Notes: generated from the letters alone by a model not told the origin. A stretch of DNA of 20,000 bases from an uncultured virus (IMG/VR IMGVR_UViG_3300027754_002682) (IMGVR_UViG_3300027754_002682), one strand, 5' to 3'; positions 2,042 through 19,078 are shown, numbered from the stretch's first letter. Numbers and translations: made by a program.

Positions 2042-2042
2042 A

Positions 2043-3309: not shown

Positions 3310-4464
3310 TTAATAAGTTTTAATTAAATCGTCTTGTTGGGTTTTTTTGTATTTTAACCAATAATTTATTGCATTTTGGTCATTTATCCATTTTGTTTTA
3401 TCATCCCAATCAAATCCTGGTCTTGCATAATAAGGTAATAGATTTCTTTTACCTTTGGTTCTTTCTTCGTGGCCTTCGGGAGACCATTCATCTATAATTC
3501 CATCATTATTTGTATCATATCCATCAATTGTTCCATCACCATCCAAGTCAATAGGAATCCTAACAATTGAATTTTCATTTTCTTTGTAATTCTCATCTTG
3601 TTTGTTTTCATTAATAATATCATCTCCGTAAACCTTATAATCTTTGTAATTTTCTTGCATCAAATCATCTAAATCATATAATCCTAATTTTTGGTTATTT
3701 TCTACCATTTCACCCAAAAGTCTTTCTTGTTTTTTATTTTTATTTTCAATTAAACCATTAAATGCGATAATAAGTGCTACTGCTAACGGGTCAAATACGA
3801 TTACAATCAAAAATATGAAGAATTTTACTACATTTTTCAGTTCTATACCGAATGCTTCAGCTACAAACCTAAAACCACCCACTTCTTTCTCTAAATCTAT
3901 GTTAGAAGTCTTAATTTCATTTATTTTTTCGTTCTCTTTAGCGTTTTGGTCTTGTAAATCACTAATTTTTTTGTTAATTTTAGCAATTTCTTTGTCTCTA
4001 TTGTCTATTGAGCGTAAAAGACGAGAATTTACCTTACCACCATCAATGATTTTACCTTGATTTTTGTTAAACTCACTAATTTGTGTTGATAGTTGCGTAA
4101 TTTGAATAGTATTTTGGTCAATTTTAGTAGAGTGTACCATAATTTCTCTATCTACTTGTTGTAGTTTAAGTGATTGTGCCTGAAAAGCGTTAGAAAGGTA
4201 ACCAAATATACCCGCCGATGTAATAATCATTAATAATGCAACTGCAGTGACCAAATACCACTTATTAAATCCCTTAATTTCATCCCACATTTGTTTTAGG
4301 TAAGTTGCTGCTACTAATTTAGCAAACTCCAAAGCACCGGCCATTACCATTACTGCGGTTGAGGCACCACTAAATAGAACACCCAATCCGGTAACCGAAA
4401 AGAACGCTGCACAACCGGCTATAATTAGTGCAGAAAATCCGACTAAATATTTAAGCCAATTCAT
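3310..4464 (-). CDS. Multi-pass membrane protein with a long coiled coil and an acidic C-terminal DxDxDG repeat
   Basis: Three N-terminal TM segments, a coiled coil of about 100 aa, a fourth TM (FFIFLIVIVFDPLAVALIIAF), then DLDGDGTIDGYDTNNDGIIDE. Confidence 0.75.
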   Translation of the reverse strand: MNWLKYLVGFSALIIAGCAAFFSVTGLGVLFSGASTAVMVMAGALEFAKLVAATYLKQMWDEIKGFNKWYLVTAVALLMIITSAGIFGYLSNAFQAQSLKLQQVDREIMVHSTKIDQNTIQITQLSTQISEFNKNQGKIIDGGKVNSRLLRSIDNRDKEIAKINKKISDLQDQNAKENEKINEIKTSNIDLEKEVGGFRFVAEAFGIELKNVVKFFIFLIVIVFDPLAVALIIAFNGLIENKNKKQERLLGEMVENNQKLGLYDLDDLMQENYKDYKVYGDDIINENKQDENYKENENSIVRIPIDLDGDGTIDGYDTNNDGIIDEWSPEGHEERTKGKRNLLPYYARPGFDWDDKTKWINDQNAINYWLKYKKTQQDDLIKTY

Positions 4465-4641
4465 TTATCTATTTATTCTTGTTAATTCTGTAACTCTTTC
4501 TACAATCTTCCTTGAATCTTCTAAAACTTCGATTGCTTGAGAAGGTGTAATTTGTTGAGCTCCGTTAATAACATTTTGTAAAATCCTCAACTTTCCGTCT
4601 AAAGATTCCAATAACATTTGTATTTTTTCGTTGTATATCAT
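4465..4641 (-). CDS. Small hypothetical protein (58 aa)
   Basis: Below the track cutoff: MIYNEKIQMLLESLDGKLRILQNVINGAQQITPSQAIEVLEDSRKIVERVTELTRINR*. It fills the gap exactly and its TAA abuts the next ATG. Confidence 0.75.
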   Translation of the reverse strand: MIYNEKIQMLLESLDGKLRILQNVINGAQQITPSQAIEVLEDSRKIVERVTELTRINR

Positions 4642-4645
4642 AGTA

Positions 4646-4653
4646 ATAAATAT
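4646..4653 (-). promoter_or_regulatory. Candidate late-promoter motif ATATTTAT
   Basis: Lies after a terminator and 4 nt before an ATG; the same arrangement recurs at 16945 and 18581. Confidence 0.4.
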
Positions 4654-4664
4654 TTGTTTATAAT

Positions 4665-4697
4665 AAAAAAGGTAGAAGTGTTTAAACTCCTACCTTT
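4665..4697 (-). terminator. Intrinsic terminator after hsp20
   Basis: Minus strand reads AAAGGTAGGAGT-TTAAAC-ACTTCTACCTTT followed by TTT; the stem contains one G-U pair. Confidence 0.8.
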
Positions 4698-4698
4698 C

Positions 4699-4730
4699 TA
4701 ATATACGAAAAATAACTGAATTAACCAACT
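4699..4730 (-). promoter_or_regulatory. Repeated promoter motif (copy 2), overlapping the hsp20 stop codon
   Basis: AGTTGG-TTAATTCAGTTATTTTT-CGTATATTA with a 17-nt spacer. Confidence 0.6.
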
Positions 4731-5107
4731 TTAGGGGTTAATTTTTTTGGTTTGGACTCTTCCTTTCTTTCAATAGTAATTAAGAGAATACCATTTTTAA
4801 TCTCAGCTTTTGCTTTTCTACCATCAAAGTTTTTACCTACTTGTACTCTTTCTTCAATGTCTGAAACCAATTGATTAAAAGGATTTTCTTTATCCTCTCC
4901 TATCTTTTTAGCTTTAATTTCAATTTTGTCCTCAAAGCAATTAATTTCAATATCTTTTGGGTCGTGCCCTAATACTGATAATGCAAGGGTTGCAGCTTCA
5001 TCTTTAATGTCTACTGCGAATTTGTTTTGAACATAAGTCGTTCTTGTCTTTGGTTGTTCGATTGGAAAAAATTCATCGAATAACTTACTGTAATCAATCA
5101 TGTACAT
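4721..5107 (-). CDS. Small heat-shock protein (HSP20/alpha-crystallin)
   Basis: LSVLGHDPKDIEI...IEIKA...AKAEIKNGILLITI...KPKKL; alpha-crystallin domain pattern, 128 aa. Confidence 0.88.
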   Translation of the reverse strand: MYMIDYSKLFDEFFPIEQPKTRTTYVQNKFAVDIKDEAATLALSVLGHDPKDIEINCFEDKIEIKAKKIGEDKENPFNQLVSDIEERVQVGKNFDGRKAKAEIKNGILLITIERKEESKPKKLTPKVG

Positions 5108-5143
5108 AATATAAATGTTTTTTAGTTAATAATACCCATATAG

Positions 5144-5160
5144 TCCAAATACTATACCAA
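5144..5160 (-). promoter_or_regulatory. Sigma54-like -24/-12 promoter candidate upstream of hsp20
   Basis: Minus strand TTGGTATAGTATTTGGA compared with consensus TTGGCACnnnnTTGCW; GG-N10-GG instead of GG-N10-GC. Confidence 0.4.
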
Positions 5161-5226
5161 CCCCAAATGTGTAACAAAGTTATGACAAAACTACCCTAAC
5201 TTTATTACAAATCGGAAAATCTGTCA

Positions 5227-5874
5227 TTAAATTGTGTTATCTTGTCTTTCAATGATTGTCGACATATGGTCTGCCCAATGCATAATAAATTGTAACTTAT
5301 AAACTAATTGTTTCTTTAAGTCGTGACCAGCTAAATACTTTTGATTATCTTCGTCATACATACCATCGGTAAGTTTGATTGCAAAATACTCTTTCTCATT
5401 ATACTGAATACCATAATGGTTCAATGTAAAGAAAGTTCTATCGGTTAGGGTCATATATGGAATATTCTCATTACGAACAAATAAAGTTCCGTATTTCTTT
5501 TGAGACCATTCTTCTTGATTTGGTAAATAATGTAATTCACCTCTAATACCTAACTTTCCCAAATCGTGATGTAGACAACTAAATATCAATTCTTCTTCGG
5601 TAAAATCTATCTCTCCACCTTGCATTACGAACAGGTCTCTCATTTTAAGAGCGTTCTTACATACATTAAAGATGTGGTCTATATACCCACCTATATATGC
5701 GTTATGATAGTGTTTTGAGCCTGATGCGGGTGATACTGCTAAATTACTACCCAATTCTTCTTCGGAATACATATGGAGTAATTTCTCCAATCTATCTCCT
5801 TTAAAATACTTCTTAATTATACCTATAAATCGGTCATAATTTGCTTTCAATTCTTGTTCTGTCTTTTGTTTCAT
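5227..5874 (-). CDS. HD-domain phosphohydrolase (YhaM-like HD domain)
   Basis: SPAS..HYHNAYIGGYIDH, LHHDLGK and HWADH motifs. Confidence 0.88.
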   Translation of the reverse strand: MKQKTEQELKANYDRFIGIIKKYFKGDRLEKLLHMYSEEELGSNLAVSPASGSKHYHNAYIGGYIDHIFNVCKNALKMRDLFVMQGGEIDFTEEELIFSCLHHDLGKLGIRGELHYLPNQEEWSQKKYGTLFVRNENIPYMTLTDRTFFTLNHYGIQYNEKEYFAIKLTDGMYDEDNQKYLAGHDLKKQLVYKLQFIMHWADHMSTIIERQDNTI

Positions 5875-5903
5875 TGTTTAGAGTTTAATTGTTTATAATA
5901 CTC

Positions 5904-5935
5904 TAATATACGACAAATTTTTGACATTACCAAAT
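5904..5935 (-). promoter_or_regulatory. Repeated promoter motif (copy 3)
   Basis: ATTTGG-TAATGTCAAAAATTTGT-CGTATATTA; begins immediately after the stop codon at 5936. Confidence 0.75.
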
Positions 5936-6499
5936 TTATATTAACTTATTTGTAAATTTGGTATATCTAAGTTTATTATTTTTATTTAAAATATTTAAAA
6001 ATTTACTATCTACTATACCTAAATAATTATTTAATTTTTTTACATTTTCTCCAGTAATAAAAATTGATTCATATGTAAAATGTTCAGCTACTAATTTTAA
6101 TAAAAATTGTTTATCTTTTTCTAATTTTGTTTTTATATTATTTAATTTTTCAATATTAAAATTTTTAATATCGTTAATATTCCAATTAACATCCCATTTA
6201 TCATTTTCAATTGAATTATAAAAACTTTCGGCCTGCTCCATTACATCTTCTCTTGTTAATATAATAGTTTTATCAAATTTTGTTTTAATATCTTCAAATG
6301 ACATATTTAAATTTAATAATTCCCATTCCATAATTTTTACAACAATATTATCTTTAAGAAATAATGAATCTATATCAATTGAACCATTTTTATTTGAATT
6401 GGTTGGTTCATAAATTTTTTCTAGATTTAATGAATTACCAATGTATGTAGTTAAAGATGTTGACCCACATCTTCCTTGTGAAAATATTAGTATTCTCAT
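5936..6499 (-). CDS. Sulfotransferase-like protein (Stf0-like P-loop fold)
   Basis: N-terminal ILIFSQGRCGSTSL (PAPS 5'-PSB RxGST), EP motif, IILTREDVMEQAES (3'-PB R...S), FTYESI. Confidence 0.75.
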   Translation of the reverse strand: MRILIFSQGRCGSTSLTTYIGNSLNLEKIYEPTNSNKNGSIDIDSLFLKDNIVVKIMEWELLNLNMSFEDIKTKFDKTIILTREDVMEQAESFYNSIENDKWDVNWNINDIKNFNIEKLNNIKTKLEKDKQFLLKLVAEHFTYESIFITGENVKKLNNYLGIVDSKFLNILNKNNKLRYTKFTNKLI

Positions 6500-7563
6500 A
6501 TTAAACCCCTTCTTTTTTTAGGTAAATGTTTATCAATTATATCGTTCATGTTTGTATGAGAATTATATTTATTTACAATTTTTTCTAATTCAATTAAAAA
6601 TAAATTAAATTCAGGATGCTCTTCATTCCATATTTGTTTTAATTTATATTCACCATTACCAAATGTTCCCCAGTTTAATATTTTAGTAAACAATACTTCA
6701 TATCCAGTTGTAGCGTGTGGTAAACTCATAATCATTTTATAATAATCAAACATTTCTTTGTAATTGGTATCTTGTACAACAAAAGAAAAGGTTTTTTTTC
6801 GCATTGTATCGATGGTTGCTATAAATTTTATATTTTTTTGTAAAATATCCCAATCTCCACCACGTCTAACTATGTTGTATGTTTCCTTAGTTGCAGCATC
6901 TATACTTATATCAATTGTTTGTATAAATTCTTTAACATTTTTTAATTTATCCCACATTTGTTCATCTAATAATATTGCATTTGTATGAATGTGTATTGTA
7001 TTTAATTTTGGAAATTTAGTTTTATCAAAATTTAATAAAAAATTTCTAAATGTTTTTGAAGCAAATGGGTCAGCTGTACCTGATATGTAAAAACAATTTA
7101 TACTTTTTCCAAATACATCAATTACTTCATCCATTGTTTTATCTATAATATCTAATTTTTCACCACTAGCCATTATAAGTGATATTCTACACGAAGGACA
7201 TGATAAATTACAACTTCTATCAAATGCTAAATTAATCCTTAATGGGCCGGTGTTACCATATAATATTTTATTTAAATTTTTATCCGATTTTTTATGGAAT
7301 ACACTGCCAACTATATTGTTGTATACAAGTTCACTTATATATGGACACAATTGTTTATCACAATAAGAATATGAACCATCCAATACGGATTCTTGTATTT
7401 TTTTTAATGTATCACCATTATATACTTCATTTAATTTACCAACTTCTCCAACGGAGGTTGGTAACCAAGATGGACAACATGCCCATACCTGTTTATCATG
7501 TATTTCTAAATAATGAAATGGGCTACCACATACATATTCTTTTAAAATATCTTCTTTTGCCAT
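6496..7563 (-). CDS. Radical SAM enzyme with an N-terminal SPASM/twitch-like Cys cluster
   Basis: CNLSCPSC (CxxxCxxC), SGTADPF, HTNA, ISIDAATKETY..VR.GG; N-terminal CGSPF...WACC...YCDKQLC. Confidence 0.92.
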   Translation of the reverse strand: MAKEDILKEYVCGSPFHYLEIHDKQVWACCPSWLPTSVGEVGKLNEVYNGDTLKKIQESVLDGSYSYCDKQLCPYISELVYNNIVGSVFHKKSDKNLNKILYGNTGPLRINLAFDRSCNLSCPSCRISLIMASGEKLDIIDKTMDEVIDVFGKSINCFYISGTADPFASKTFRNFLLNFDKTKFPKLNTIHIHTNAILLDEQMWDKLKNVKEFIQTIDISIDAATKETYNIVRRGGDWDILQKNIKFIATIDTMRKKTFSFVVQDTNYKEMFDYYKMIMSLPHATTGYEVLFTKILNWGTFGNGEYKLKQIWNEEHPEFNLFLIELEKIVNKYNSHTNMNDIIDKHLPKKRRGLI

Positions 7564-8097
7564 TTATTTTAATTGTGTTGTTGCTGTTATGGTCATTTGT
7601 TGTATTTCTATATTGTGTGGTTGGTTTAAACACCATTCGACTACCTCAGCAACTTTATTACATTCGATTTTATTAAAATTGTTAAAATTTTTATGTGAAT
7701 CAAGTGTTCCTAAATTTAAATTGATAATTCTAACTTTTTTATTTGGATATTTATCAATTAAAGATTGCGTAATATTATTTAAATGTTTTTTGTTTGCAAC
7801 ATATTGAGGACTCCATGCTCCTGATTGATGTATAGAACTACTATTTATGTTTATTATTGTTTTTTCTAAATCTTTCCATTTATCAAATAATTTTAAAATT
7901 AAATCGGATTGTGTTGTTTCATAATACACATTATTTATAAAAATATCACAATTTTCTAATTTTTCTATTATTTTATTCGGTGATTGAACATTGTATCCAT
8001 TTGTTCTACTAAACCCAATTACATCATATAATGTAATTAATTTATCATATATTGCTTTACCTAAACCTGCAGTATGTCCTGTTATTCCAATTATCAT
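7564..8097 (-). CDS. Short-chain dehydrogenase/reductase (compact)
   Basis: ITGHTAGLGKAI (TGxxxGxG), DIFINN, IININS, YVANK (YxxxK). Confidence 0.88.
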   Translation of the reverse strand: MIIGITGHTAGLGKAIYDKLITLYDVIGFSRTNGYNVQSPNKIIEKLENCDIFINNVYYETTQSDLILKLFDKWKDLEKTIININSSSIHQSGAWSPQYVANKKHLNNITQSLIDKYPNKKVRIINLNLGTLDSHKNFNNFNKIECNKVAEVVEWCLNQPHNIEIQQMTITATTQLK

Positions 8098-8594
8098 AAT
8101 AATCCTTTTTTTAATTCTAAATTATCTATATGCAAAAATGATATTATGCTCCACCTTTCTCCATCGGTAATTTCTTTAACTGCATGTTCTCTTAAACTTG
8201 GAAAAGTATATATTTCACCTTGTTTTTTTGGTAATATTTCATATGGTTCATATAATACAAATTCCCCACCCGTATAATCATCATTTAAACAAACACCTAT
8301 ATTATGTATTTGTGTTGGATATAAATCGTCCTTGTGTTTAGTAAATTTATTACCCTGTTTATAATTATGTAAATATATAATGTCTAATTCTTTTTTTATT
8401 TTAATTCCTGTTGTGTTTGTAAAATAATTAAATAACTTATCAAAAATCCACTGTGTTTTTGGAGTTCTATGTATATTCCAAACATTATATTTTATATCAT
8501 TTTCATTTTTAAAATATAAATTTGAATCTTTTTTTTCAATATCTTTTGATAAAAGTATAATCCCATTACATTCTTCTTTGGTAAAACAAATCAT
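8094..8594 (-). CDS. 2OG-Fe(II) oxygenase (prolyl-4-hydroxylase-like)
   Basis: HKD...LNDDYTGGEF...HAV..ITDGERWS. Start is probably MICFTKEEC at 8594, giving an ATGA overlap with the SET gene stop. Confidence 0.88.
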   Translation of the reverse strand: MICFTKEECNGIILLSKDIEKKDSNLYFKNENDIKYNVWNIHRTPKTQWIFDKLFNYFTNTTGIKIKKELDIIYLHNYKQGNKFTKHKDDLYPTQIHNIGVCLNDDYTGGEFVLYEPYEILPKKQGEIYTFPSLREHAVKEITDGERWSIISFLHIDNLELKKGLL

Positions 8595-8977
8595 AATAAT
8601 TTTTTTGCTCTTGCTTTCCAATATTTTTCACCATAATTGTGGCACATCTCATCGCCGATTTTAATATCAATTAATGAATAAAAATTAATAATCTTTTTTT
8701 CATAATCAACAATATTCCACATAATATTTGGTGTATAACTATGATTATATATACTACCAAATCCAAACGGTAGATAATGTTTATTATTTTTAACATCAGT
8801 AAATACATAATCATATGATGGGTGTGTTATTATTGCAAAATCCATAATTAAACAATAACACATTTCTATTAATGTATTTTTTTTAATATTTTTTAGTGCA
8901 AATACACCAAATCCAATTTTATCATTTATATATCTAACCTCTATTTTATTAGATGGTTTTATTTTAATCAATTCCAT
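8591..8977 (-). CDS. SET-domain protein-lysine methyltransferase
   Basis: GFGVFA, YNHSYTPN (NHSxxPN), DIKIGDEMCHNYG..YW (ELxxDY). Confidence 0.92.
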   Translation of the reverse strand: MELIKIKPSNKIEVRYINDKIGFGVFALKNIKKNTLIEMCYCLIMDFAIITHPSYDYVFTDVKNNKHYLPFGFGSIYNHSYTPNIMWNIVDYEKKIINFYSLIDIKIGDEMCHNYGEKYWKARAKKLL

Positions 8978-9628
8978 TTAGATTATAGTTTTTACAATTT
9001 CATTTTTTCTGTGTCGTATGATTGGTATTACACATTGATTCCAATCGGGGTTAAAATAAAATCCCTTACCACTTTCATATTGTTCTTTTTTTGATGGGAT
9101 ATTATTTAATGTTAATATTTTTTTATCAAATTCAAATTCTTTGTATAAAATATCGGTAGTTCCACCATTTACGATTTGAAAAGATATTCCTTCCCAATAA
9201 GAAAATACTCCGTTTTCTTTTAATATATTTTTTAAATGTGGTAAAAATATTTCATAAAAGCCATCATCTTCCCAGGTATCAAAATATATTCCATCAAATT
9301 TTGGTAAATCATTTATAACATCTTGCCATTTACCAAATATTATTTTTACATTTGGTTTCTTATCCCAACCATCTTCTATCATTTTTGAATAGACATCTGG
9401 ATGTGCTTCTATTATTGTATGTGAATTTATTGGATATGTTTCTATAAAAGAATCGATTATTCCCATACCAAATCCTATATTCAGTATATCACCACCAGAT
9501 TCGCAAATTATTTTAGCAGATTCATACATCCATTCGGTCTCCCAATCCATCATAACAGCATGTCCCTTTTCATCTATTAATCTACCATCGATTGTATATT
9601 TTAATTTGTGTTCTAAATAATTTTTCAT
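8978..9628 (-). CDS. Class I SAM methyltransferase, RMT2/GAMT-like
   Basis: VMMDWETEWM, ILNIGFGMGIID, HTIIEAHPDV, GKWQDV, FDGIYFDT, GVFSY; these closely match protein arginine N-methyltransferase 2 and guanidinoacetate methyltransferase motifs. Confidence 0.88.
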   Translation of the reverse strand: MKNYLEHKLKYTIDGRLIDEKGHAVMMDWETEWMYESAKIICESGGDILNIGFGMGIIDSFIETYPINSHTIIEAHPDVYSKMIEDGWDKKPNVKIIFGKWQDVINDLPKFDGIYFDTWEDDGFYEIFLPHLKNILKENGVFSYWEGISFQIVNGGTTDILYKEFEFDKKILTLNNIPSKKEQYESGKGFYFNPDWNQCVIPIIRHRKNEIVKTII

Positions 9629-9631
9629 TTT

Positions 9632-10153
9632 TTAAAATAACTTTCTTTTTTTAGTAAGAAAAAATTGTAAAGTAATTCTATCTTCTGCGTTTATATTAGT
9701 TGTTGTTACACAATGTTTGGTTCCTGCTTCTAAAAGTATTCCTAAGTTTTTTTGTGGTATAATACCTGTTATTTCATTATCTTTTTTGTAAAGAAATATA
9801 CCACCCCAGTTTTCTTTCCAATCTTCATTTAAATAAATTGTTAATGCATGTTCACAATGGTCATCTAAATGCCATGGAATATATGCTAATTTTGGAAAAA
9901 TATGAACAACCATATCAGTTATAGAATATTGGGTTTTTTTTAAAACAACTTCTTTTATTTTATCAAATAAAGCTGCATCATTGTTTTCAAACTGATATCT
10001 TATAATTGGACTAGAGTGTGCTTTAAGGCCTTCTTCCCATCCTCTATTGGTTGTTAATTTAGATTGTTTAGAATTCATTATTGTTTTTATAAAATAAATT
10101 ATTTCTTTAAATAAATCTTCATCAAAAAAATTATCAAATTTTTGTATACACAT
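9632..10153 (-). CDS. 2OG-Fe(II) oxygenase
   Basis: IPWHLD...TIYLNEDWKENWGG...HCV...RITLQ. Confidence 0.88.
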   Translation of the reverse strand: MCIQKFDNFFDEDLFKEIIYFIKTIMNSKQSKLTTNRGWEEGLKAHSSPIIRYQFENNDAALFDKIKEVVLKKTQYSITDMVVHIFPKLAYIPWHLDDHCEHALTIYLNEDWKENWGGIFLYKKDNEITGIIPQKNLGILLEAGTKHCVTTTNINAEDRITLQFFLTKKRKLF

Positions 10154-10154
10154 A

Positions 10155-10955
10155 TTAAATTATTTTATTATTTTGTATAGGTAAATAGTTTGGGTGGTTT
10201 TTTAAAATATATTCGTATAATAGGTGTGCGTATTTTTTGTTTGTATGCGGGCCCGAATGTATATTATCAACACCATAATCCAAAACATACGGGCCTTCAC
10301 CATCAAATCTATTATTTTCAACATAAGTGGGTGTTGAATTTGTTCCGTTCCACACCCAATTACATTTTTTAGTTTCTAAAAAGTATTTTATTAATAAATG
10401 ATTTTTATACCAATTATTTATAAAATCATCATATATATTTAAATTTTCTACAAAATTTTTGTGAATTTGTTTACCAGTATCGGTTTCCATAAAATCCCAA
10501 GTTGATGTTGGCATAAATGGTTCAACACTTGCCGTTTCTGTATAATATTCTTTTCTATGAAAAATTGTATAAAATATTAAAACTAAATCAGGTTTAATTA
10601 AATCATAGTATGTATGTAAACATCTTACTATATAATCATTACTTCTACCTGCACATCCAAAATTTAAATCAACTCCATTTGGTACTAATTTTGCAAATTG
10701 TGCCGGCCAAGTTTCATTATCATTAACGCCAACTCCTTCGGTATATGAACATCCAATCGACATTATTTTGAATCCTTTTTTAGTTGGTTCGTCACCTCTA
10801 AAACCTAATGAATTATAAGTGTAGGTACACAAACCACTGGTATCGTTTGCCGATTTATCTGTTTTTAAATTTCTTCTTCTTTCTAAACTATCTCTATAAT
10901 AACTTGATATTTCAAATGTATTTACATTCCAAAAATTTAATGGATTATTACTCAT
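10155..10955 (-). CDS. SGNH/GDSL-like hydrolase or acyltransferase
   Basis: YNSLGFRG, SIGCSYTEGVG (block I), NFGCAGRSN (block II), DNIHSG (DxxH). Confidence 0.75.
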   Translation of the reverse strand: MSNNPLNFWNVNTFEISSYYRDSLERRRNLKTDKSANDTSGLCTYTYNSLGFRGDEPTKKGFKIMSIGCSYTEGVGVNDNETWPAQFAKLVPNGVDLNFGCAGRSNDYIVRCLHTYYDLIKPDLVLIFYTIFHRKEYYTETASVEPFMPTSTWDFMETDTGKQIHKNFVENLNIYDDFINNWYKNHLLIKYFLETKKCNWVWNGTNSTPTYVENNRFDGEGPYVLDYGVDNIHSGPHTNKKYAHLLYEYILKNHPNYLPIQNNKII

Positions 10956-11464
10956 AACAAACTTTTTGTATCTTTTTTTGTGATATTTCTAAATCGTAAA
11001 AGACATAATAAACTATATCTTATTCCATTTATTATAGGTTTAACTTCGTGATAAACATCGGAATCATAATTATAAAGTTCACCCACAGGTTTATTGTAAA
11101 CTAAATCATTTAAATAAAAATCACCACCTATATAATCATCATTAAGTCTTGTATTAATATTAGCAATGGCACCATGTGTAAAAGTAGTGTGGAATTTCGT
11201 TTTATCCATATGTCTACCAAAAAAATCACCATTTATATATTTTAAAATATACACTTCAAAATTATCAATTTTATATTTTGATAAATTTTCATTAATATAT
11301 TCTTTAAATACTTTTTGGGGTGTACTAAATTCTGATATTTCTTTGATAAAATATCTATTATTTTTACGCTCTATTCTATCCCATTCGTTTAATGTAATAT
11401 TTTCTGCATAATCGATAATTTCATTACATTCAAACTTTAAAAATTGTATTTTATCAATAGACAT
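10952..11464 (-). CDS. 2OG-Fe(II) oxygenase
   Basis: FGRHMD...LNDDYIGGDF...HEVKPIINGIRYSL. Confidence 0.88.
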   Translation of the reverse strand: MSIDKIQFLKFECNEIIDYAENITLNEWDRIERKNNRYFIKEISEFSTPQKVFKEYINENLSKYKIDNFEVYILKYINGDFFGRHMDKTKFHTTFTHGAIANINTRLNDDYIGGDFYLNDLVYNKPVGELYNYDSDVYHEVKPIINGIRYSLLCLLRFRNITKKDTKSLL

Positions 11465-11465
11465 A

Positions 11466-12038
11466 TTAAATAAGAATTTTATTTTCTTCTATAATCTCCC
11501 AATTATGTATTGGCATGACAATAGACCATCTATTTCCATTTGTTATTTTTTTTATTTCATGTGGAACTCTGCAATGATAAAATAAAGCAGTACCAGTTTC
11601 TTTTGGTAATACTATTGAATCACCATTTTTATCGTAACAAACATACTCTCCACCTTCATATTCTTCGTTTAATTGAATTCCTAAATTATACCTTCTTTCT
11701 TCAAATCCTTTTGATAAATCTATATGTTTGGAAAATTTATCGCCTACGATATATTTGTGTAATGTACAATTCGGATGTTTTATTTCTTTATTAAATTTAA
11801 CACCAGTTTTTTCAGAAAACCAATTAATTAGTTTATTAAACATCCACTCTGTATTTTCGTTATTATCAATACTATATACATTATATGATGCTGCTTTTGG
11901 AAAAACTATTCTATTTTTTTCATATTTTCCATTCAAATGATTAGAAAAATCAAAATTTATATCTTCATTTGTATTTTTTGAGAAATTTATAATTTTTTCA
12001 CACTCTTCTTTTGTAAATATTTTCTCGTATTGAATCAT
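11466..12038 (-). CDS. 2OG-Fe(II) oxygenase
   Basis: FSKHID...QLNEEYEGGEY...HEIKKITNGNRWSI. Confidence 0.88.
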   Translation of the reverse strand: MIQYEKIFTKEECEKIINFSKNTNEDINFDFSNHLNGKYEKNRIVFPKAASYNVYSIDNNENTEWMFNKLINWFSEKTGVKFNKEIKHPNCTLHKYIVGDKFSKHIDLSKGFEERRYNLGIQLNEEYEGGEYVCYDKNGDSIVLPKETGTALFYHCRVPHEIKKITNGNRWSIVMPIHNWEIIEENKILI

Positions 12039-12046
12039 ATAGTAAC

Positions 12047-12649
12047 TTATATTAATTTATTAGGTTTAATTCCATATCTACCATTAAAATCATTCATACT
12101 TTCATTTGAACGATTTAGATGAAAATATATTGGTGTTGGTATAAAATATTCTGTCTTTAAAAAATTTTTAATGCTAATTCCAAATTCTTTGTCTTCTTGA
12201 TTTCGTATATGTTTAAATTTAACTTTATCTATTATTTCTTTTTTAATTGGACATTTCTGGTCAGGAGCAATGTAGAATGTATTTTTTTTAAATTCCCACA
12301 TATGTTTTATTGAATAATAAAAAAATTCATTTGTCCATGTTTCTTTATCAATTGGTGATTTATGCGTTATACAATCAACATTTAAATCAATAGCTTTCAT
12401 GATTAATTGGATTGCATCTTTACTAATCCAATCATCATCATCCCATTGAACAACATATTTACCCGTTGCCATTTCATTTAATTTGTTTCGTTTTTCACCT
12501 ATCGTCATATCTTTATTATCACATAAGGAAATAATTTCAATCTGATTTCCGTAAGGATTTGATTGGCGTACAATTTCTTCGTAGAATTCTTCGAAACATT
12601 TTTTTCTCCTTTCAACGGTTGGTATTGTGATTGATAGTAATGGTTTCAT
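12047..12649 (-). CDS. Glycosyltransferase family 2 (GT-A fold)
   Basis: LSITIPT, IGEKRNKL..MATGKYVVQWDDDD (DxD), QED. Confidence 0.88.
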   Translation of the reverse strand: MKPLLSITIPTVERRKKCFEEFYEEIVRQSNPYGNQIEIISLCDNKDMTIGEKRNKLNEMATGKYVVQWDDDDWISKDAIQLIMKAIDLNVDCITHKSPIDKETWTNEFFYYSIKHMWEFKKNTFYIAPDQKCPIKKEIIDKVKFKHIRNQEDKEFGISIKNFLKTEYFIPTPIYFHLNRSNESMNDFNGRYGIKPNKLI

Positions 12650-12657
12650 TTGTATTC

Positions 12658-13218
12658 TTATAAAAAAGATTTTATTTTTTCATGCGTTGGCCAACAATTT
12701 AACGAATATCTCATTCCACTTTTTATAACATCAATTCTATGTTGTGTTGTTGATTCAAAAATTATTAAAGTGCCTGTTTTTTTACTAAATTCTTTTTGTT
12801 CGGAACCATTCATATAATAAAAACTTCCTCCTTCATACTCTTCATTTAATTGGATTGCAATTGTTAATGTTGCATTATTAAATTTAATTTCTGCCCCATC
12901 TTTATGCCAATCTAAAAAATCATCAATCATATATTTGTTAAAAGTATATGCGCGTATTTTTTTATATGCAATTCCTTTTAATATATTTAGTTCATTTAAT
13001 TTATTTATAATTTTATCATTTAAAGATTCGAATTCTGATGCATTTATAAATTTTGCTTTTCTTTTATTAAATATGTAATCCGAAAAACTTTCTGAATTTT
13101 TACTAAAGTCCATTGTAGAAGCATCTTCTAATTCATATTTTTTTGATATGGTATTTATAATTTCATCACATTCTTCTTTTGATAAGAAATCAAATATTTC
13201 AATTGCAGCTTCTTTCAT
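12658..13218 (-). CDS. 2OG-Fe(II) oxygenase
   Basis: FLSKEECD, LDWHKD...QLNEEYEGGSF...HRI..IKSGMRYSL. Confidence 0.88.
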   Translation of the reverse strand: MKEAAIEIFDFLSKEECDEIINTISKKYELEDASTMDFSKNSESFSDYIFNKRKAKFINASEFESLNDKIINKLNELNILKGIAYKKIRAYTFNKYMIDDFLDWHKDGAEIKFNNATLTIAIQLNEEYEGGSFYYMNGSEQKEFSKKTGTLIIFESTTQHRIDVIKSGMRYSLNCWPTHEKIKSFL

Positions 13219-13742
13219 TATAATAATGTTTTTTTATTTTTGGTTTCTGTTTCTAAAAAACAAATTAATGTATATCTATCACCTTCAATAACATTTTTTA
13301 CTCTATGTAATAATAGAGGATTCTGCATAATTGATACTCCTTTTTTTGGTTTTATTTCTACAAACACATCATTATCATCTACATATTCATATTCTCCACC
13401 TAAAAAATTATCATTTAAAAATGTAATCATAGTAAATTGTGATTCATCTGTATGAAAATCGGCATTTATATTATATTGATTGGTAATTTTATTAATCCAA
13501 ATTGCTTCAATTTTTACATTTAAATTAAAATTTTTTTTTATATAATTTAATAATTTATTTTGGTAATTTAATAAATCTACATTTTTATCTAACATCATTC
13601 TATGATAAAAATTTTGATATGTATTTTCCTTTATTGTTATACTATCTACTGGTACACTATTTGAAACAAAATTATTCATTGAATTTTTTAAAAAATCAAA
13701 TTCAATATCATTTAATAATACATTATCTATAAACCTAACCAT
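13218..13742 (-). CDS. 2OG-Fe(II) oxygenase
   Basis: DFHTD...FLNDNFLGGEY...HRV..VIEGDRYTL. Likely start is MVRFIDN at 13742, 1 nt after the upstream stop. Confidence 0.88.
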   Translation of the reverse strand: MVRFIDNVLLNDIEFDFLKNSMNNFVSNSVPVDSITIKENTYQNFYHRMMLDKNVDLLNYQNKLLNYIKKNFNLNVKIEAIWINKITNQYNINADFHTDESQFTMITFLNDNFLGGEYEYVDDNDVFVEIKPKKGVSIMQNPLLLHRVKNVIEGDRYTLICFLETETKNKKTLL

Positions 13743-13743
13743 A

Positions 13744-14016
13744 TTACAATAACTTTTTATTAAATATTTTTGGGTGTTGTACATCCACTTCGTTCCATTT
13801 CTCTAATGGACAATCATTGAATGTTCCAGTAAATATTTTTTTTGATAATGGACAACCACATTTTCCACAGATGGTAGGAAATCCCTTAATATATTCTGTT
13901 CTTTCAGGACACACATTACATATTTTTAATCTTTTTTCAGCAAGTGTTTTTTGTTCTTCTCCACCAAACCAAGAATCAAACCAGGCCTTTGATATTTTTT
14001 TTAAATCTAATTCCAT
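13744..14016 (-). CDS. Small Cys-rich putative metal-binding protein (DUF6171-like pattern)
   Basis: RLKICNVCP...CGKCGCPL..K......CPLEKW; first gene after promoter copy 4. Confidence 0.7.
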   Translation of the reverse strand: MELDLKKISKAWFDSWFGGEEQKTLAEKRLKICNVCPERTEYIKGFPTICGKCGCPLSKKIFTGTFNDCPLEKWNEVDVQHPKIFNKKLL

Positions 14017-14033
14017 AATAACATTATAATGTT

Positions 14034-14065
14034 TAATATACGATTTTTTATTTGAATTGCCAAAT
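14034..14065 (-). promoter_or_regulatory. Repeated promoter motif (copy 4), heading the enzyme operon
   Basis: ATTTGG-CAATTCAAATAAAAAAT-CGTATATTA, 17 nt upstream of the ATG at 14016. Confidence 0.75.
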
Positions 14066-14075
14066 TATTTATAAT

Positions 14076-14119
14076 AAAAAAAGGTTCTAAGGTTTATTTC
14101 TAAAACCATTGAACCTTTT
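14076..14119 (-). terminator. Intrinsic terminator after the ATP-grasp-Hint/small-ORF unit
   Basis: Minus strand AAAAGGTTCAATGGTTT-TAGAAAT-AAACCTTAGAACCTTTT followed by TTT; bulged stem plus U tract. Confidence 0.7.
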
Positions 14120-14140
14120 CTATAATAATTAAAAAAAATT

Positions 14141-14254
14141 TTAATTATTTTGTATATCAGTTTTTATAGCTGAAACAATTTCTACGATTTTTGTTGAAAT
14201 CGCTGCTTTTTCTTCTATTGATAATTCGATTATTTCATGTTTAATTATTGCCAT
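14141..14254 (-). CDS. Small peptide ORF (37 aa)
   Basis: Below the track cutoff: MAIIKHEIIELSIEEKAAISTKIVEIVSAIKTDIQNN*. It has an A-rich leader and lies between the Hint gene stop and the terminator. Confidence 0.6.
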   Translation of the reverse strand: MAIIKHEIIELSIEEKAAISTKIVEIVSAIKTDIQNN

Positions 14255-14278
14255 ATTATTTATTTTTATTGTTTTTTA

Positions 14279-15745
14279 TTATTTTTGTGTACAGGATGCA
14301 GGATTACAATTACCACATTGTGCGTAACTTTGACATGAAGGCCATTTACCTCTTGAGCTACATATAGCGTTACACACATTATGTTGAATTACTGCTAAAT
14401 TATTTGCTACTAATGGTAAGAATACATCTTTTGCTTCAACATTAATTTCACCAAGTCTTATGTTTTCTTTAAAAATTATATTTAAATTTGAAACTGTTTT
14501 ATGTACTAATGTGTAATTTATAGTTTCTATACATTCTACAACATCACCTACAACAAAATCATTTACCGTTTTAAATCTAATATTATCACCTTCTTTTACC
14601 AATATGTGTGATGTTTCATTATCATCCCATTGAGTACCATCCTCAAATGTTATTCTTATAAACAAATCACTAAGTTCTTGTGATTCTATTTTATCTATAA
14701 CTTGTGAAGATGTTACATAAAAATTTTCTGAGAAATTTTGGAAAGAACCAGTCCATGTATTCATATTCGCTATAACTTCATCATCATCTAAATCAGGAAT
14801 TGCAATTGATTTAACCTGGTCTCCAACAACAATATCATCAAATATTTTTATACTTCCATCGGCCATAGTGATATCTTCATCGACATCAACAATATAGTTT
14901 ACTCTATCTTCAACATTATATGTGTATGTTATGTATTTTGGTCTATCTTTTTTATCCATTAATCCATTTGAATCAAATGTTGATTCCCATATATCGACTG
15001 GTATCATGTTTCCAACTTTATAACCACCCAATGAAATGATATCTAAGTTTCCACCATAAAGTAAATCAATACCTCTAACAATTGAATGTGTATTATTAGT
15101 AAGTTCTGATGGTATATATTCTTGTATAAACTCTTCAGTTCCGTTTATAGAAGCTTTTAAATCATTTAATTCTTGTACTGATTTTATTTGATATAGTTTA
15201 GGAAAAACATATTTGTCGTAATTAGGATATCTTTTTTTAACAATAAAATTAGGTATACCCTCTGTGTATGTAATTTCCGTTAAACCCACAAAATCATCAA
15301 CTACATCTACTATATATGATTTTGGTTTACATTCTAAAGAATCTAAGGCTTTTATAAAATTATATTTATCGGCTGCATAATCAGAATCAATAATTGCGGT
15401 AGTATCATATGAAATTCTAATTGTAAATGAACCTTCTACATCCTCAATGTATGGAACCGTAATACTACCTTGAGTAGTTTCATATGCGTTGAATGTGATT
15501 CCACCTATTTGATTTTCACAAATATCTTTTATAATATCTTTAATACCATTATCATATGCCGGATAAATTACATTTACCGATGTAAAATTATTTGATTCGA
15601 TAAATAATTTTATATTATTCCACTCTAAAATGCTTACATCCAAATCTTCCAATACACCTAAACTGGCATTAGTGTTAGTTTCTAAAACCTTATATTCACC
15701 GGTTGAAGTTTTAATGTAATCCGTAGCTATTAATACTGCTTTCAT
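14279..15745 (-). CDS. Circularly permuted ATP-grasp-like domain + Hint (intein-like) domain + Cys-rich C-terminal peptide
   Basis: N-terminal ATDYIKTSTGEYKVLETNTN (D..G...LExN), then PNFIVKKR and FIQEYI..VR. Hint domain at about aa 285-456: ITMADGSIKIFDDIVVGDQV, IRITFEDG, VNDFVVGDVV, EINVE..DVF...IQHN. The tail is VCNAICSSRGKWPSCQSYAQCGNCNPASCTQK. Confidence 0.8.
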   Translation of the reverse strand: MKAVLIATDYIKTSTGEYKVLETNTNASLGVLEDLDVSILEWNNIKLFIESNNFTSVNVIYPAYDNGIKDIIKDICENQIGGITFNAYETTQGSITVPYIEDVEGSFTIRISYDTTAIIDSDYAADKYNFIKALDSLECKPKSYIVDVVDDFVGLTEITYTEGIPNFIVKKRYPNYDKYVFPKLYQIKSVQELNDLKASINGTEEFIQEYIPSELTNNTHSIVRGIDLLYGGNLDIISLGGYKVGNMIPVDIWESTFDSNGLMDKKDRPKYITYTYNVEDRVNYIVDVDEDITMADGSIKIFDDIVVGDQVKSIAIPDLDDDEVIANMNTWTGSFQNFSENFYVTSSQVIDKIESQELSDLFIRITFEDGTQWDDNETSHILVKEGDNIRFKTVNDFVVGDVVECIETINYTLVHKTVSNLNIIFKENIRLGEINVEAKDVFLPLVANNLAVIQHNVCNAICSSRGKWPSCQSYAQCGNCNPASCTQK

Positions 15746-15862
15746 GTTTCTTTTTGTTTATTTCTTATAAGTATATATTAATTTCAATTTTGAATTATAT
15801 ATATTATTTTTTTTATTGTGATTGTGAATATACAAATATATATCGACATTACAAAAAATATC

Positions 15863-15880
15863 GGCGGGGGTTGGGGGGGG
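15863..15880 (+). repeat. G-rich tract GGCGGGGGTTGGGGGGGG
   Basis: Directly visible in an otherwise extremely AT-rich intergenic region. Confidence 0.8.
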
Positions 15881-15936
15881 TAAAGTCGTTTTTTAAGAAA
15901 ATTTTTGGAATAGGAATATCTTACCTCTATTGATAG

Positions 15937-16497
15937 TTATATTAATTTAATAGGAATACGCTCTCCATTTAACATCTTAGTCAAATAAGGTTTATCATTT
16001 TCTATCATACTATATAATTTATTTAACGAATCGGTATTGACCATTTCTATTATCGTTGAAGTGGTATCCGTAGAATTATGATAATAATTCATATTGTAAT
16101 TATTTGGGTCGTATGGAATATCGGTAAACAAATTTGACAAATAGGTTAACTCTATAACTTTAAACTCTATTCTATTCCAATGGTTATACATATAGTTAAA
16201 TAGTATAGGAGACCAATGTGTGCCCGTACCATTTAAAAAAGAATTTATAATTGTATCTATATCACCACCATCGAATTCAATTGCAGTTCTAATTTCAGTT
16301 TTTAAAGCAGATTCTAAATGTTCTCTACCCACTCTATATACCCAGTAAGTATCTTTTGTAATGTTTTCGATTTTATATATAGTAGATAGTTCTTCTATTG
16401 ATGTGGGATTGGTTTCGTTTTCTAGCCACCTTGTACCACATTTTAAAGGTGCGATTATATCTAATCCATTTTCGTATCGAAATCTTTTTAAAACCAT
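15937..16497 (-). CDS. Divergent sulfotransferase-like protein
   Basis: IIAPLKCGTRWL (KxGT PAPS-binding loop), VYR....HL.SAL, THWSP; pattern of the Sulfotransfer_2 family. Confidence 0.55.
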   Translation of the reverse strand: MVLKRFRYENGLDIIAPLKCGTRWLENETNPTSIEELSTIYKIENITKDTYWVYRVGREHLESALKTEIRTAIEFDGGDIDTIINSFLNGTGTHWSPILFNYMYNHWNRIEFKVIELTYLSNLFTDIPYDPNNYNMNYYHNSTDTTSTIIEMVNTDSLNKLYSMIENDKPYLTKMLNGERIPIKLI

Positions 16498-18576: not shown

Positions 18577-18601
18577 ACTAATAAATATCATTAAATAGAA
18601 T

Positions 18602-18633
18602 AAAAAAACCCCCTACATTTTAAGTAGAGGGTT
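18602..18633 (-). terminator. Intrinsic terminator
   Basis: Minus strand AACCCTCTAC-TTAAAAT-GTAGGGGGTT followed by TTTTT. Confidence 0.85.
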
Positions 18634-18639
18634 CTCAGT

Positions 18640-18750: not shown

Positions 18751-18889
18751 ATTTAATTTAGTTTGGTTAAAAAATAAGTCAACTAATTCCGATATCGTAT
18801 AAATAAGTATCACTTAGGTAAAAGAAAAACACCTATTTTCACTTTGTGTGTATCATACATCATGTCAAAATTGCTCCTATACACAAAAA

Positions 18890-19046: not shown

Positions 19047-19078
19047 AAAATAAAAATGAAAACATTAGAAACTCAAAT

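Follow-up and report, generated by a model that had tools for sequence, protein, structure and literature searches.

A basic, di-aliphatic C-terminal tail on unrelated enzymes of an ATP-grasp–Hint gene module in uncultured T4-like phages

Gene content of the island

The window analysed here is a stretch of 20,000 nucleotides from an uncultured virus (IMG/VR IMGVR_UViG_3300027754_002682), whose minus strand contains an island of enzyme genes between positions 5936 and 16497 together with a gene for an ATP-grasp–Hint (ligase-Hint) protein, as listed in Table 1. The RMT2-like label that a preliminary description had given to one methyltransferase agrees with the matching guanidinoacetate N-methyltransferase chains, and its SGNH label is backed by a GDSL_2 match, but only a weak one. 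For the two proteins that it had named sulfotransferases (15937..16497 and 5936..6499), no family or PDB match was found in the Pfam and PDB searches. The start of the 2OG-oxygenase paralogue ending in KKTLL was set at the ATG overlapping the upstream stop. Sequences similar to the C-terminus of the tiny ORF were also observed at the ends of P0131 and P0211.

Table 1. Genes of the island, in minus-strand order, with their C-terminal residues
Product	Position	Strand	C-terminus	Remarks
186-aa protein, unassigned family	15937..16497	-	PIKLI	Immediately precedes the ligase-Hint gene
488-aa ATP-grasp + Hint + 32-aa six-Cys peptide	14279..15745	-	CTQK (untagged)	Heads the tagged run
Tiny 37-aa ORF	14141..14254	-	DIQNN (untagged)	Directly after the ligase-Hint gene
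90-aa Cys-rich zinc-ribbon-like protein	13744..14016	-	NKKLL	Weak DZR_2/FtrD-like matches
2OG-oxygenase paralogue	13218..13742	-	KKTLL	Aligned with paralogues; invariant H137, R147
2OG-Fe(II) oxygenase	12658..13218	-	IKSFL	PF13640, E 6e-10
GT2 glycosyltransferase	12047..12649	-	PNKLI	PF00535, E 1e-6
2OG-Fe(II) oxygenase	11466..12038	-	NKILI	PF13640, E 1e-10
2OG-oxygenase paralogue	10952..11464	-	TKSLL	Paralogue alignment
266-aa GDSL/SGNH-like protein	10155..10955	-	NNKII	Weak GDSL_2 match, PF13472, E 0.012
2OG-Fe(II) oxygenase	9632..10153	-	KRKLF	PF13640, E 5e-6
GAMT/RMT2-like methyltransferase	8978..9628	-	VKTII	PDB guanidinoacetate N-methyltransferase, E 2e-15
SET-domain methyltransferase	8591..8977	-	AKKLL	PF00856, E 2e-11
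2OG-Fe(II) oxygenase	8094..8594	-	KKGLL	PF13640, E 2e-9
SDR	7564..8097	-	TTQLK (untagged)	PF00106; sole untagged enzyme of the run
Radical SAM enzyme	6496..7563	-	RRGLI	PF04055
187-aa P-loop-like protein	5936..6499	-	TNKLI	Ends the run; 60-nt spacer after it

The tail and its selection at the protein level

ORF translation of the window recovered all 14 basic and di-hydrophobic C-termini that had been listed before, each at the named gene on the minus strand. The earlier count of 14 of 15 holds in its numerator, but the denominator is 16 island ORFs, as both the SDR and the ATP-grasp-Hint protein are untagged, the latter as had been described. The strict motif, K/R-x(0-1)-[LIF][LIF] at the terminus, thus occurs in 14/16 island ORFs versus 0/16 flanking ORFs (Fisher test, p = 5e-7), and the looser [LIF][LIF] in 1/16 flanking ORFs, in line with the earlier statement that flanking proteins lack the tail. 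These counts leave out the ORF at 1-1083, whose C-terminus lies beyond the window, the ORF at 18810-18995, and all plus-strand ORFs, since these overlap longer minus-strand ORFs. At 3311 internal positions of the same proteins, the strict motif was observed at 1.4% (binomial p ~1e-24) and [LIF][LIF] at 5.0% (binomial p ~7e-17).

The tag logo exhibits L or I at positions -2 and -1, with I/L/F as the last residue in 93% of tags and Leu-Ile as the commonest end, whereas lysine is enriched from -7 to -3, reaching 21–45% across -7 to -4 and 45% at -4 itself. The consensus proposed earlier, with K/R within the two preceding residues, is therefore kept for the two fixed terminal hydrophobic residues and revised for the basic residues, which are spread over -3 to -7; K/R is found at -3 or -4 in only 49/120 of the radical-SAM homologues nearest in sequence. 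Position -3 is occupied by T (21%), S (17%), K (23%) or N (13%). The tail is predicted to be disordered, as in the AF2 model of the radical SAM enzyme residues 351-355, located beyond the last helix (340-346), have pLDDT <50. When Ile and Leu at -1 were compared over 33 loci (chi-square p = 0.085), the tag showed no clear preference by genome of the kind that would point to co-evolution with a phage receptor.

The tail is not explained by base composition, stop/start overlap or a DNA motif. An origin without any protein signal, through AT-rich codons ahead of the stop, overlaps of the ATGA type, the edge of a DNA cassette or paralogue ancestry, would account for the more frequent TGA stops of tagged ORFs (123/428 versus 106/710) and the over-use of ATA at -1 (71% versus 47%), both of which are expected from ATGA overlaps, and six of the 14 tagged genes of the window are 2OG paralogues. 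The controls already contradict this origin, to which we give a negligible probability: mock ORFs read in the island's other frames carry the strict motif in 12/233 cases (5%) and [LIF][LIF] in 42/233, non-island genes in two whole related genomes (G005 and G003) have a background of 1.5–3%, and the strict tail was found in only 1/180 genes of the AT-rich Pelagibacter phage HTVC008M (6/180 with the looser ending) and in 3/198 ORFs of low-GC cellular loci. The PIKLI gene is followed by a 190-nt spacer, so its tail does not derive from a stop/start overlap, and 86/326 unique ORFs (26%) with more than 40 nt to the next start are tagged. The tails draw on the full set of synonymous Leu and Ile codons, at near their frequencies in the protein bodies, and the nucleotide information is concentrated at second codon positions and ends at the stop codon, with nothing in the nucleotides beyond it. 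Moreover, the tagged families, about 20 in number, have no detectable sequence similarity to one another. The tail is hence confirmed as a genuine protein-level signal, selected as protein, on unrelated folds.

Differential conservation of the tail was observed with distance among homologues. Among the 120 nearest radical-SAM homologues, all (120/120) end in two hydrophobic residues and 114/120 in [LIF][LIF], whereas in cellular radical-SAM homologues [LIF][LIF] was seen in 2/70 and the strict motif in 0/70. The GAMT-like homologues are tagged in 41/44 of the nearest and in 7/76 of those ranked next, and for the 2OG protein at 11466..12038 the ending occurs in 97/150 nearest cluster representatives, with the fraction dropping with rank. 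Over whole loci, the tail was found on 488/1460 ORFs of 80 viral loci versus 35/1191 ORFs of 80 cellular loci. No tag was seen in the cultured T4-like phages looked at, including 43 annotated CDS of an S-CAM7 region read by eye. The tag is thus absent from the flanking genes, from cellular homologues and from the other AT-rich T4-like phages examined.

The ligase-Hint protein and its module in related phages

The AF2 model of the ATP-grasp-Hint protein has a pLDDT of 80. In Foldseek searches, its Hint part matched BIL, hedgehog and mini-intein structures (E 1e-7, target TM-score 0.7-0.78), and the N-terminal 330 residues matched the glutathione synthetase and E. coli YgiC/YjfC fold (E 1e-5), with ATP-grasp matches to 5oeu, 7uk8, 8fbz and 3kaj at E 9e-6 to 1e-4 and low TM-scores of 0.26-0.35; no Pfam match was found for the protein. 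The residues E22-x-N24, R110 and K170, predicted to bind Mg/ATP, are invariant in 28 sequences, and by its modelled fold the head gene would encode an ATP-grasp ligase of the glutathione synthetase/GspS/YgiC-YjfC class. In alignments of homologues, the C-terminal HN of the Hint part is invariant and the first residue of the Hint module is not Cys, so that only C-terminal cleavage seems possible. The six-Cys core has a conserved Cys framework with hypervariable loops. All 169 homologues are unnamed.

The same module recurs in uncultured T4-like phages of 200-335 kb, the window being one example. It consists of the ATP-grasp-Hint gene with its hypervariable six-Cys peptide, the tiny ORF and variable enzymes of ~20 unrelated families, such as 2OG, Asp/Asn hydroxylases, radical SAM, SET, GAMT-like, GT2, GT9, SDR, SGNH-like, P-loop and zinc-ribbon proteins. 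The ligase-Hint gene occurs in one copy per complete genome, and no homologue was found in 50,697 deposited phage records. The related T4-like phages carry the gp23 capsid protein. Over 42 loci, the genes at +1 to +5 from the ligase-Hint gene are tagged in 88–95%, the rate being ~50% at +9 to +11, ~48% at -1 and -2, and lower farther upstream. By family, tails were found on 24/26 of the 187-aa P-loop-like proteins, 17/21 unique members of the Cys-rich zinc-ribbon-like family, 14/16 GDSL/SGNH-like and 4/4 SET proteins, and on 5/7 unique SDR members, with ends such as NKTLL, GKTLL, NKTLI and PKSLL. The last codon of the SDR of the window is AAA; ATA instead would yield LI. The strict tag was present in 8/207 genes of G005, five of them within the island bin, and in 17/376 genes of G003, seven within the bin, and the enrichment in island over non-island genes proposed with the preliminary description was thus positive both genome-wide and in related phages. 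In G003, tagged SGNH-like and P-loop genes also lie far from the island, indicating that any reader of the tag must act in trans. Few neighbours are tagged around a distant ligase-Hint homologue of 918 aa (L081), and long-form ligase-Hint proteins without the Cys peptide nevertheless head tagged runs, so recruitment to the peptide would not be the whole story.

Possible roles of the tail

Of the docking function suggested earlier, a protein-level tag on unrelated folds, specific to the phage clade, to the island and to its enzyme classes, is upheld, and for a possible recruitment to a common scaffold the evidence is the tight, conserved association with the ATP-grasp-Hint gene. Our leading interpretation, which is tentative and to which we assign a probability of about 0.38, is that the tail may be a disordered, carboxylate-anchored short linear motif by which interchangeable enzymes dock to a hub that the phage encodes and that is probably the ligase-Hint protein, as that gene association suggests; the association could also reflect merely one pathway in one operon. 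The Lys-rich disordered stretch and the two aliphatic residues at the free C-terminus have been placed by this phage clade on at least ~20 unrelated tailoring-enzyme families, and because the tail is common to them, one reader could recognise whichever enzymes a phage carries. The likeliest reader would be a component of the same module, with the ATP-grasp-Hint protein, which appears to carry or release the hypervariable six-Cys peptide, as the first candidate, and the tail would bring the interchangeable enzymes to this protein or to its peptide. Such a tail resembles an address label recognised by a single shared partner; no description of it was found in the literature searched.

The tail might instead be a C-terminal degron or unfoldase handle for a host or phage Clp-type AAA+ machine, through which the tailoring enzymes would have a brief, timed lifespan or be extracted from a tight complex. 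It exhibits the unstructured, basic-then-aliphatic C-terminus of the ClpX degron C-motif-2 of MuA (...QNRRKKAI), which, in the passages available of PMC12723719, is likewise extreme C-terminal, combines a basic run with two aliphatics, and is transferable, functioning when fused to the C-terminus of Arc. The predicted disorder is as in degrons, and ClpP (E 1e-56 to 1e-58) with an AAA_2 Clp-type ATPase was detected in 3/4 complete related genomes, the ATPase of G003 being a 670-aa two-ring ClpC-like protein (AAA, AAA_lid_9, UVR, AAA_2, ClpB_D2-small). However, ClpP and the ATPase are both missing from G005, which has tag and island, the terminal pair of MuA-type tags consists of small residues (Ala-Ile) and not of Leu/Ile-Ile/Leu, and the tail here is common to ~20 enzyme families of one phage operon, with no evident reason why this enzyme set alone should be unstable; we regard the degron as unlikely. 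It is more doubtful that the tail serves as the substrate of the ATP-grasp enzyme, its carboxylate being activated and joined to an amine, either the N-terminus that Hint cleavage would expose on the six-Cys peptide or that of a polyamine. The predicted fold and the invariant residues described above fit such chemistry, ATP-grasp enzymes of this class join amines to the terminal carboxylate of small peptides (YgiC and YjfC, by the title of one study, reportedly "possess peptide-spermidine ligase activity"), and an enzyme of this kind would require a motif strictly anchored at the free carboxylate, as the tail is. Against this, we know of no protein C-terminus that is a substrate of this subclass, the covalent tagging of ~10 different enzymes has no obvious purpose, and the Cys peptide itself would be an equally possible substrate of the ligase.

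Two localisation signals are also conceivable. A polybasic stretch with two hydrophobics could form a minimal membrane tail that keeps glycan or envelope enzymes at the inner face of the cytoplasmic membrane, as many tagged families are of glycan type (GT2, GT9, SIS, HAD, SDR, GDSL-like), a carbamoyltransferase and a cytidylyltransferase lie nearby, and Lys is enriched close to the end; but two hydrophobics beside a charged carboxylate make a poor anchor, the fixed register with the terminus points to a carboxylate-reading pocket, and the SET, GAMT-like and Asp/Asn-hydroxylase enzymes act on proteins, which leaves a membrane role improbable. Encapsulins have C-terminal cargo-loading peptides and a shell of the phage HK97 fold, and the phages here are T4-like with gp23, so that the tail could load enzymes into the capsid or virion for delivery to the next host. 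T4, however, uses N-terminal capsid-targeting sequences, and the tag tracks the ligase-Hint operon and not structural genes, which makes packaging, if anything, the more improbable of the two.

The docking interpretation shares its logic with the cargo peptides of encapsulins and microcompartments and with cellulosomal dockerins, where unrelated enzymes carry one terminal label for one scaffold or shell. Those labels have ~10-70 residues with their own consensus or fold, whereas the tag comprises two fixed residues and a basic stretch; no consensus of at least ~10 residues beside a shell gene was found, and the neighbours of tagged genes are enzymes and the ligase-Hint gene. PDZ ligands likewise have a free carboxylate and a hydrophobic last residue, and two places before it Ser/Thr (class I) or a hydrophobic residue (class II). 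Thr or Ser together make up 38% at -3 of the tags, but Lys or Asn are as common there, and as for a PDZ reader, PF13180 (PDZ_2) and PF03572 (S41 protease) were found in 0/4 complete related genomes with positive controls, in a search that covered phage genes.

Among marine T4-like phages, similar runs of 2OG oxygenases, glycosyltransferases, carbamoyltransferase and radical-SAM cassettes are described in the available passages on the tandem dioxygenase array gp45-54 of cyanomyophage Syn9 (Iyer et al. 2010, PMC2938197) and on the pelagimyophage host-recognition cluster (PMC7029224), with peptide or surface modification as the proposed role. These passages do not mention a tag, and "C-terminal" has 0 occurrences in those of PMC7029224. 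In contrast to the island, the strict tag occurs in 0/19 proteins of the Syn9 array ([LIF][LIF] in 1/19), and the tail was seen in 1/18 tailoring enzymes of HTVC008M.

In its gene content the module also resembles RiPP clusters, as tailoring enzymes surround a putative ribosomal precursor whose Cys-rich core is hypervariable. In RiPP systems the substrate carries a leader and each enzyme a recognition domain, whereas here the recognition element is on the enzymes and an ATP-grasp-Hint protein of 450 residues would take the place of the "leader"; if the docking interpretation holds, the usual RiPP logic would be reversed. The island includes both radical SAM enzymes and hydroxylases, families that are characteristic of peptide modification.

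C-terminal tag in the island and its anatomy

All genes of the window are carried on the minus strand, and 14 of the 16 ORFs in the island (5936-16497) were observed to close with [LIF][LIF] preceded within two residues by K/R, the strict form of this tag being K/R-x(0-1)-[LIF][LIF]. The C-termini listed in the preliminary description match the sequence for 16 ORFs, and its claim that the flanks are untagged is borne out, with the strict motif in 0 of 16 flanking ORFs and [LIF][LIF] in one, SGQIF, which has a TTG start and is of doubtful reality; ORF 1-1083 (C-terminus beyond the window), ORF 18810-18995 and the plus-strand ORFs, all overlapping longer minus-strand ORFs, were excluded from this flank count. 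The untagged island ORFs are the SDR (TTQLK) and the 488-aa ligase-Hint protein (CTQK). The SDR is the only untagged enzyme of the run, its last codon (AAA) being one base from ATA, which would give Leu-Ile, and its family counts 7 unique members, of which 5 are tagged, with the window SDR as the odd member.

Internal positions of the same island proteins (3311 positions) show the strict motif at 1.4% and [LIF][LIF] at 5.0%, giving binomial p values of ~1e-24 and ~7e-17, respectively, while the Fisher comparison of island and flank gives p = 5e-7. Mock ORFs drawn from the remaining five island frames carry the strict motif in 12 and [LIF][LIF] in 42 of 233 cases.

The logo of 428 unique tagged ORFs displays K at 21-27% from -7 to -5, K (45%) and N (16%) at -4, K/T/S/N at -3, L (66%) and I (20%) at -2, and I (58%) and L (29%) at -1. 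The end is fixed across the six 2OG paralogues, whose linker past the last strand differs in length. In the radical SAM protein as modelled with AF2 (pLDDT 88.7), residue 346 closes the last helix and residues 351-355 fall below pLDDT 50. A genome-specific preference for Ile or Leu, considered as a sign of receptor co-evolution, was not significant (p = 0.085).

When 1490 ORFs were clustered, 24 families had 3 or more unique members and a hydrophobic pair at the end of 60% or more of them. Three of these families, peptide deformylase (EIV/QLV), a SIS protein (SVI) and family 86, are without the basic part and probably do not carry this tag proper, leaving ~20 tagged families, whose Pfam or PDB identities include 2OG-FeII_Oxy_3, Asp/Asn beta-hydroxylase, two SET families, GT2, GT9, radical SAM, SDR, HAD/NT5C, GAMT-like, GDSL (weak) and DUF6734. 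No Pfam or PDB sequence match was obtained for two window ORFs (see table) or for families 3, 13, 20 and 28. Conserved neighbours that are rarely or never tagged include the ligase-Hint protein (1/33), Hsp20 (0/26), DUF2061, the cytidylyltransferase-like protein and a 370-aa membrane protein.

Distribution of the tag in related loci and homologues

No close relative was detected among deposited phages by megablast of the island or tblastn of the ligase-Hint and radical-SAM proteins, and single-protein searches of IMG/VR returned solely an identical 11.8-kb contig. The loci recovered with the radical-SAM homologue profile (A2) comprise 80 viral ones, all of 25-35% GC, and 80 cellular ones. Four viral contigs, each with a T4 gp23 capsid gene, represent genomes that are 97-100% complete and span 202-336 kb, and in one locus (L018) synteny with the window extends into the flanks. 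With a simple greedy caller (ATG start, at least 60 aa), [LIF][LIF] ends were found in 488 of 1460 viral-locus ORFs (322 strict), 35 of 1191 cellular-locus ORFs (11 strict) and 9 of 198 ORFs (3 strict) in the 14 cellular loci below 40% GC, these loci being partly redundant and the crude ORF calls missing genes shorter than 60 aa.

In the complete genome G005, 8 of 207 genes carry the strict tag, and the 190-200 kb bin accounts for 5 of these. The strict tag occurs in 17 of 376 genes of G003, whose 310-320 kb bin of 12 genes holds 7 strict and 10 [LIF][LIF] ends; the tagged G003 genes outside this island bin are mostly SGNH-like or P-loop by N-terminal motifs, and the tag therefore tracks enzyme class plus place. 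HTVC008M, a T4-like Pelagibacter phage of 33% GC with 13 annotated 2OG oxygenases, has the strict motif in 1 and [LIF][LIF] in 6 of 180 genes, and the tag in 1 of its 18 tailoring enzymes. The strict tag was found in 0 of 19 genes of the Syn9 dioxygenase array, and the tag is absent around the 2OG genes of S-CAM7 and marine virus AG-345-E15.

Among the best 120 of 1106 radical-SAM homologues, with identity down to 49%, a hydrophobic pair closes all 120, being [LIF][LIF] in 114 cases, and the residues ahead of the pair are variable; in viral loci 63 of 65 radical-SAM rows at 40% identity or more are tagged and 6 of 20 more distant ones, and in cellular loci 2 of 70 (0 of 70 strict). The GAMT/RMT2-like methyltransferase is tagged in 41 of its 44 nearest homologues versus 7 of the next 76. 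Eukaryotic RMT2 forms are among those without the tag and have different ends beyond the same last conserved block. For the 2OG oxygenase at 11466-12038 compared with 1.84 billion cluster representatives, [LIF][LIF] occurs in 97 of the best 150, declining from 22/25 at the top to 10/25 at ranks 126-150, and 30 of the other homologues among these 150 have a G-P-x-F-K/R type end, like cyanophage and pelagiphage enzymes. A general 2OG property was therefore rejected, both because the 2OG enzymes of AG-345-E15, S-CAM7, Syn9 and HTVC008M are without the tag and because the untagged homologues end in this different motif.

Codon use was assessed on unique ORFs of the window plus the 80 viral loci, 428 of them tagged and 710 untagged. 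The tag positions use all synonymous Leu and Ile codons close to body frequencies, with two deviations, ATA at -1 (71% vs 47%) and TGA stops (29% vs 15%), which fit with ATGA overlaps. Nucleotide information peaks at second codon positions and is at most 0.16 bit past the stop codon, a profile that rules out a DNA motif or cassette boundary as the cause. Tagged ORFs account for 165/386 where the next start overlaps, a class overestimated because the ORF caller takes first-ATG starts, and for 65/214, 34/120 and 86/326 at gaps of 0-10, 11-40 and >40 nt. An adjacent downstream start is thus not required for the tail, and translational coupling or ATGA overlap as the cause was rejected since the tail persists with a distant next start. 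Codon or composition bias is likewise ruled out by the internal-position, mock-ORF, genome-wide, codon-use, HTVC008M and low-GC cellular controls. That the tail is an artefact is hardly credible.

The ligase-Hint gene and its neighbourhood

The 488-aa ligase-Hint protein (AF2 pLDDT 80) was found, by structure comparison of the model, to resemble glutathione synthetase and E. coli YgiC/YjfC over its N-terminal ~330 residues and BIL, hedgehog and mini-intein Hint domains in its C-terminal domain; longer relatives match Pfam Hint families. Alignment of 28 relatives shows no variation at E22-x-N24, R110, K170 or the C-terminal His-Asn of Hint, and the first Hint module is without an N-terminal Cys. 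Beyond His-Asn, short forms (the window protein and homologues P0121-P0240) have an extension of 27-35 residues whose six Cys keep a fixed framework and whose loops are hypervariable, usually closing with Lys; this extension looks like a putative self-released, fast-evolving knottin-like or RiPP-like core; in long forms, one or two extra canonical Hint modules replace this Cys peptide. The family comprises 169 members among 5.8 billion proteins, all unnamed and without a Pfam domain, and G003 and G005 hold one copy each. Sequences like the 37-aa ORF listed in the table are appended to two mis-called homologues, P0131 and P0211.

Across 42 ligase-Hint loci, many of them near-duplicates so that the counts are not independent, the neighbours at +1 to +5 are tagged in 40/42, 37/42, 39/42, 38/41 and 36/41 cases. 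No tRNA was found in the window by ARAGORN.

Features of the window and of related genomes and loci
Feature	Coordinates or position	Strand	Remark
Flank	1-5874	-	conserved in relatives: carbamoyltransferase, 232-aa protein, peptide deformylase, DUF2061, cytidylyltransferase-like protein, 384-aa membrane/coiled-coil protein (Asp-rich repeats), Hsp20, HD-type phosphohydrolase; all untagged
Two unmatched ORFs	5936-6499; 15937-16497	-	
Radical SAM	6496-7563	-	
SDR	7564-8097	-	
GAMT/RMT2-like	8978-9628	-	
2OG	11466-12038	-	
37-aa ORF	14141-14254	-	directly 3' of ligase-Hint gene; helical by appearance
Ligase-Hint gene	14279-15745	-	
Short doubtful ORFs only	18600-19080		GC somewhat higher
Neighbours of ligase-Hint gene	+6 to +8		tagged 83% falling to 68%; 42 loci
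Neighbours of ligase-Hint gene	+9 to +11		tagged 42-54%; 42 loci
Neighbours of ligase-Hint gene	-1 and -2		tagged 48%; 42 loci
Neighbours of ligase-Hint gene	-7 and -8		tagged 5-8%; 42 loci
Neighbours of ligase-Hint gene	-9 to -12		tagged 0-38%; at most 8 genes per position
ClpP/Clp-type ATPase genes	G003 154213-156225 (L181:14213-16225), 173799-174479 (L182:13799-14479)		also in G002 and G004 (320-335 kb relatives)
Dispersed tagged SGNH-like groups (GDS-type N-termini) and P-loop protein	G003 2502-9201, 216722-226705, 247186-247848		far from island
Radical-SAM arrays	L051:941-12200; L077:4066-12201		five to six tandem paralogues, mostly untagged

Candidate readers of the tail

That the tail keeps its register relative to the carboxylate, is disordered and recurs on unrelated folds speaks for a single reader protein with a pocket, which would grip the free carboxylate of the tail; this reader would be the ligase-Hint protein or another component of the module. 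The ligase-Hint protein is the only large, conserved, untagged protein tied to the tagged run, and docking of the enzymes to it or to another module component is therefore ranked first, tentatively, at a probability of about 0.38. When ATP-grasp residues 1-335 were modelled in complex with the C-terminal 40 residues of the radical SAM protein, the prediction scored 0.04 against a mark of 0.32, a value that bears neither way on binding. A Clp-type degron, ranked second, is doubtful. The tail is similar to the MuA C-motif-2 tag, and genes for ClpP and for an AAA_2 Clp-type ATPase are present in three of the four complete genomes (the ATPase of G003, of 670 aa, being two-ring and ClpC-like without an N-domain); G005 (202 kb) encodes neither.

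The third-ranked reading, an improbable one, takes the tail as the carboxylate substrate of the ATP-grasp in a phage-encoded protein C-terminal ligation system, where the Leu-Ile carboxylate of every tagged protein would be activated and then coupled to an amine, either a polyamine or the N-terminus of the six-Cys peptide fresh from Hint release; structural relatives of the ATP-grasp join amines to peptide C-termini (reportedly so for YgiC/YjfC). The enzymes would then bear covalent labels, and to our knowledge such conjugation logic has no precedent in viruses. Membrane targeting by the tail is more improbable still, and virion packaging marginally more so. No phage-encoded PDZ or S41 reader was found in the complete related genomes. 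Binding to an sHSP groove, considered as Hsp20 adjoins the island in many loci, was set aside since the untagged S-CAM7 and HTVC008M also have Hsp20; a second ground is that the tag is without the spaced Ile-x-Ile pattern.

If the tail is the address label of an exchangeable enzyme toolbox, it would offer a simple sequence rule to spot module members in metagenomes, useful because many members are without Pfam or PDB sequence matches, a handle to reconstitute a pathway of uncultured phages by which hypervariable cysteine-rich peptides appear to be made or decorated, and perhaps, for protein engineering, a new minimal tag for docking, degradation or ligation. The tag is also an example of phages putting a common linear motif on many protein folds, as eukaryotic short-linear-motif systems likewise do.

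Full-text literature searches turned up no published account of the tag or of the module. Tandem dioxygenase arrays in cyanophages, with peptide or metabolite modification proposed (Iyer et al. 2010, PMC2938197), and, for pelagimyophages, hypervariable islands that contain radical-SAM cassettes (Zaragoza-Solas et al. 2020, PMC7029224) have been described; the available portions of both papers mention neither a C-terminal tag nor the ligase-Hint gene, and 'C-terminal' has 0 occurrences in that of PMC7029224. The radical-SAM arrays of L051 and L077 adjoin APS-kinase-like, cytidylyltransferase-like, DUF2061 and ligase-Hint genes.
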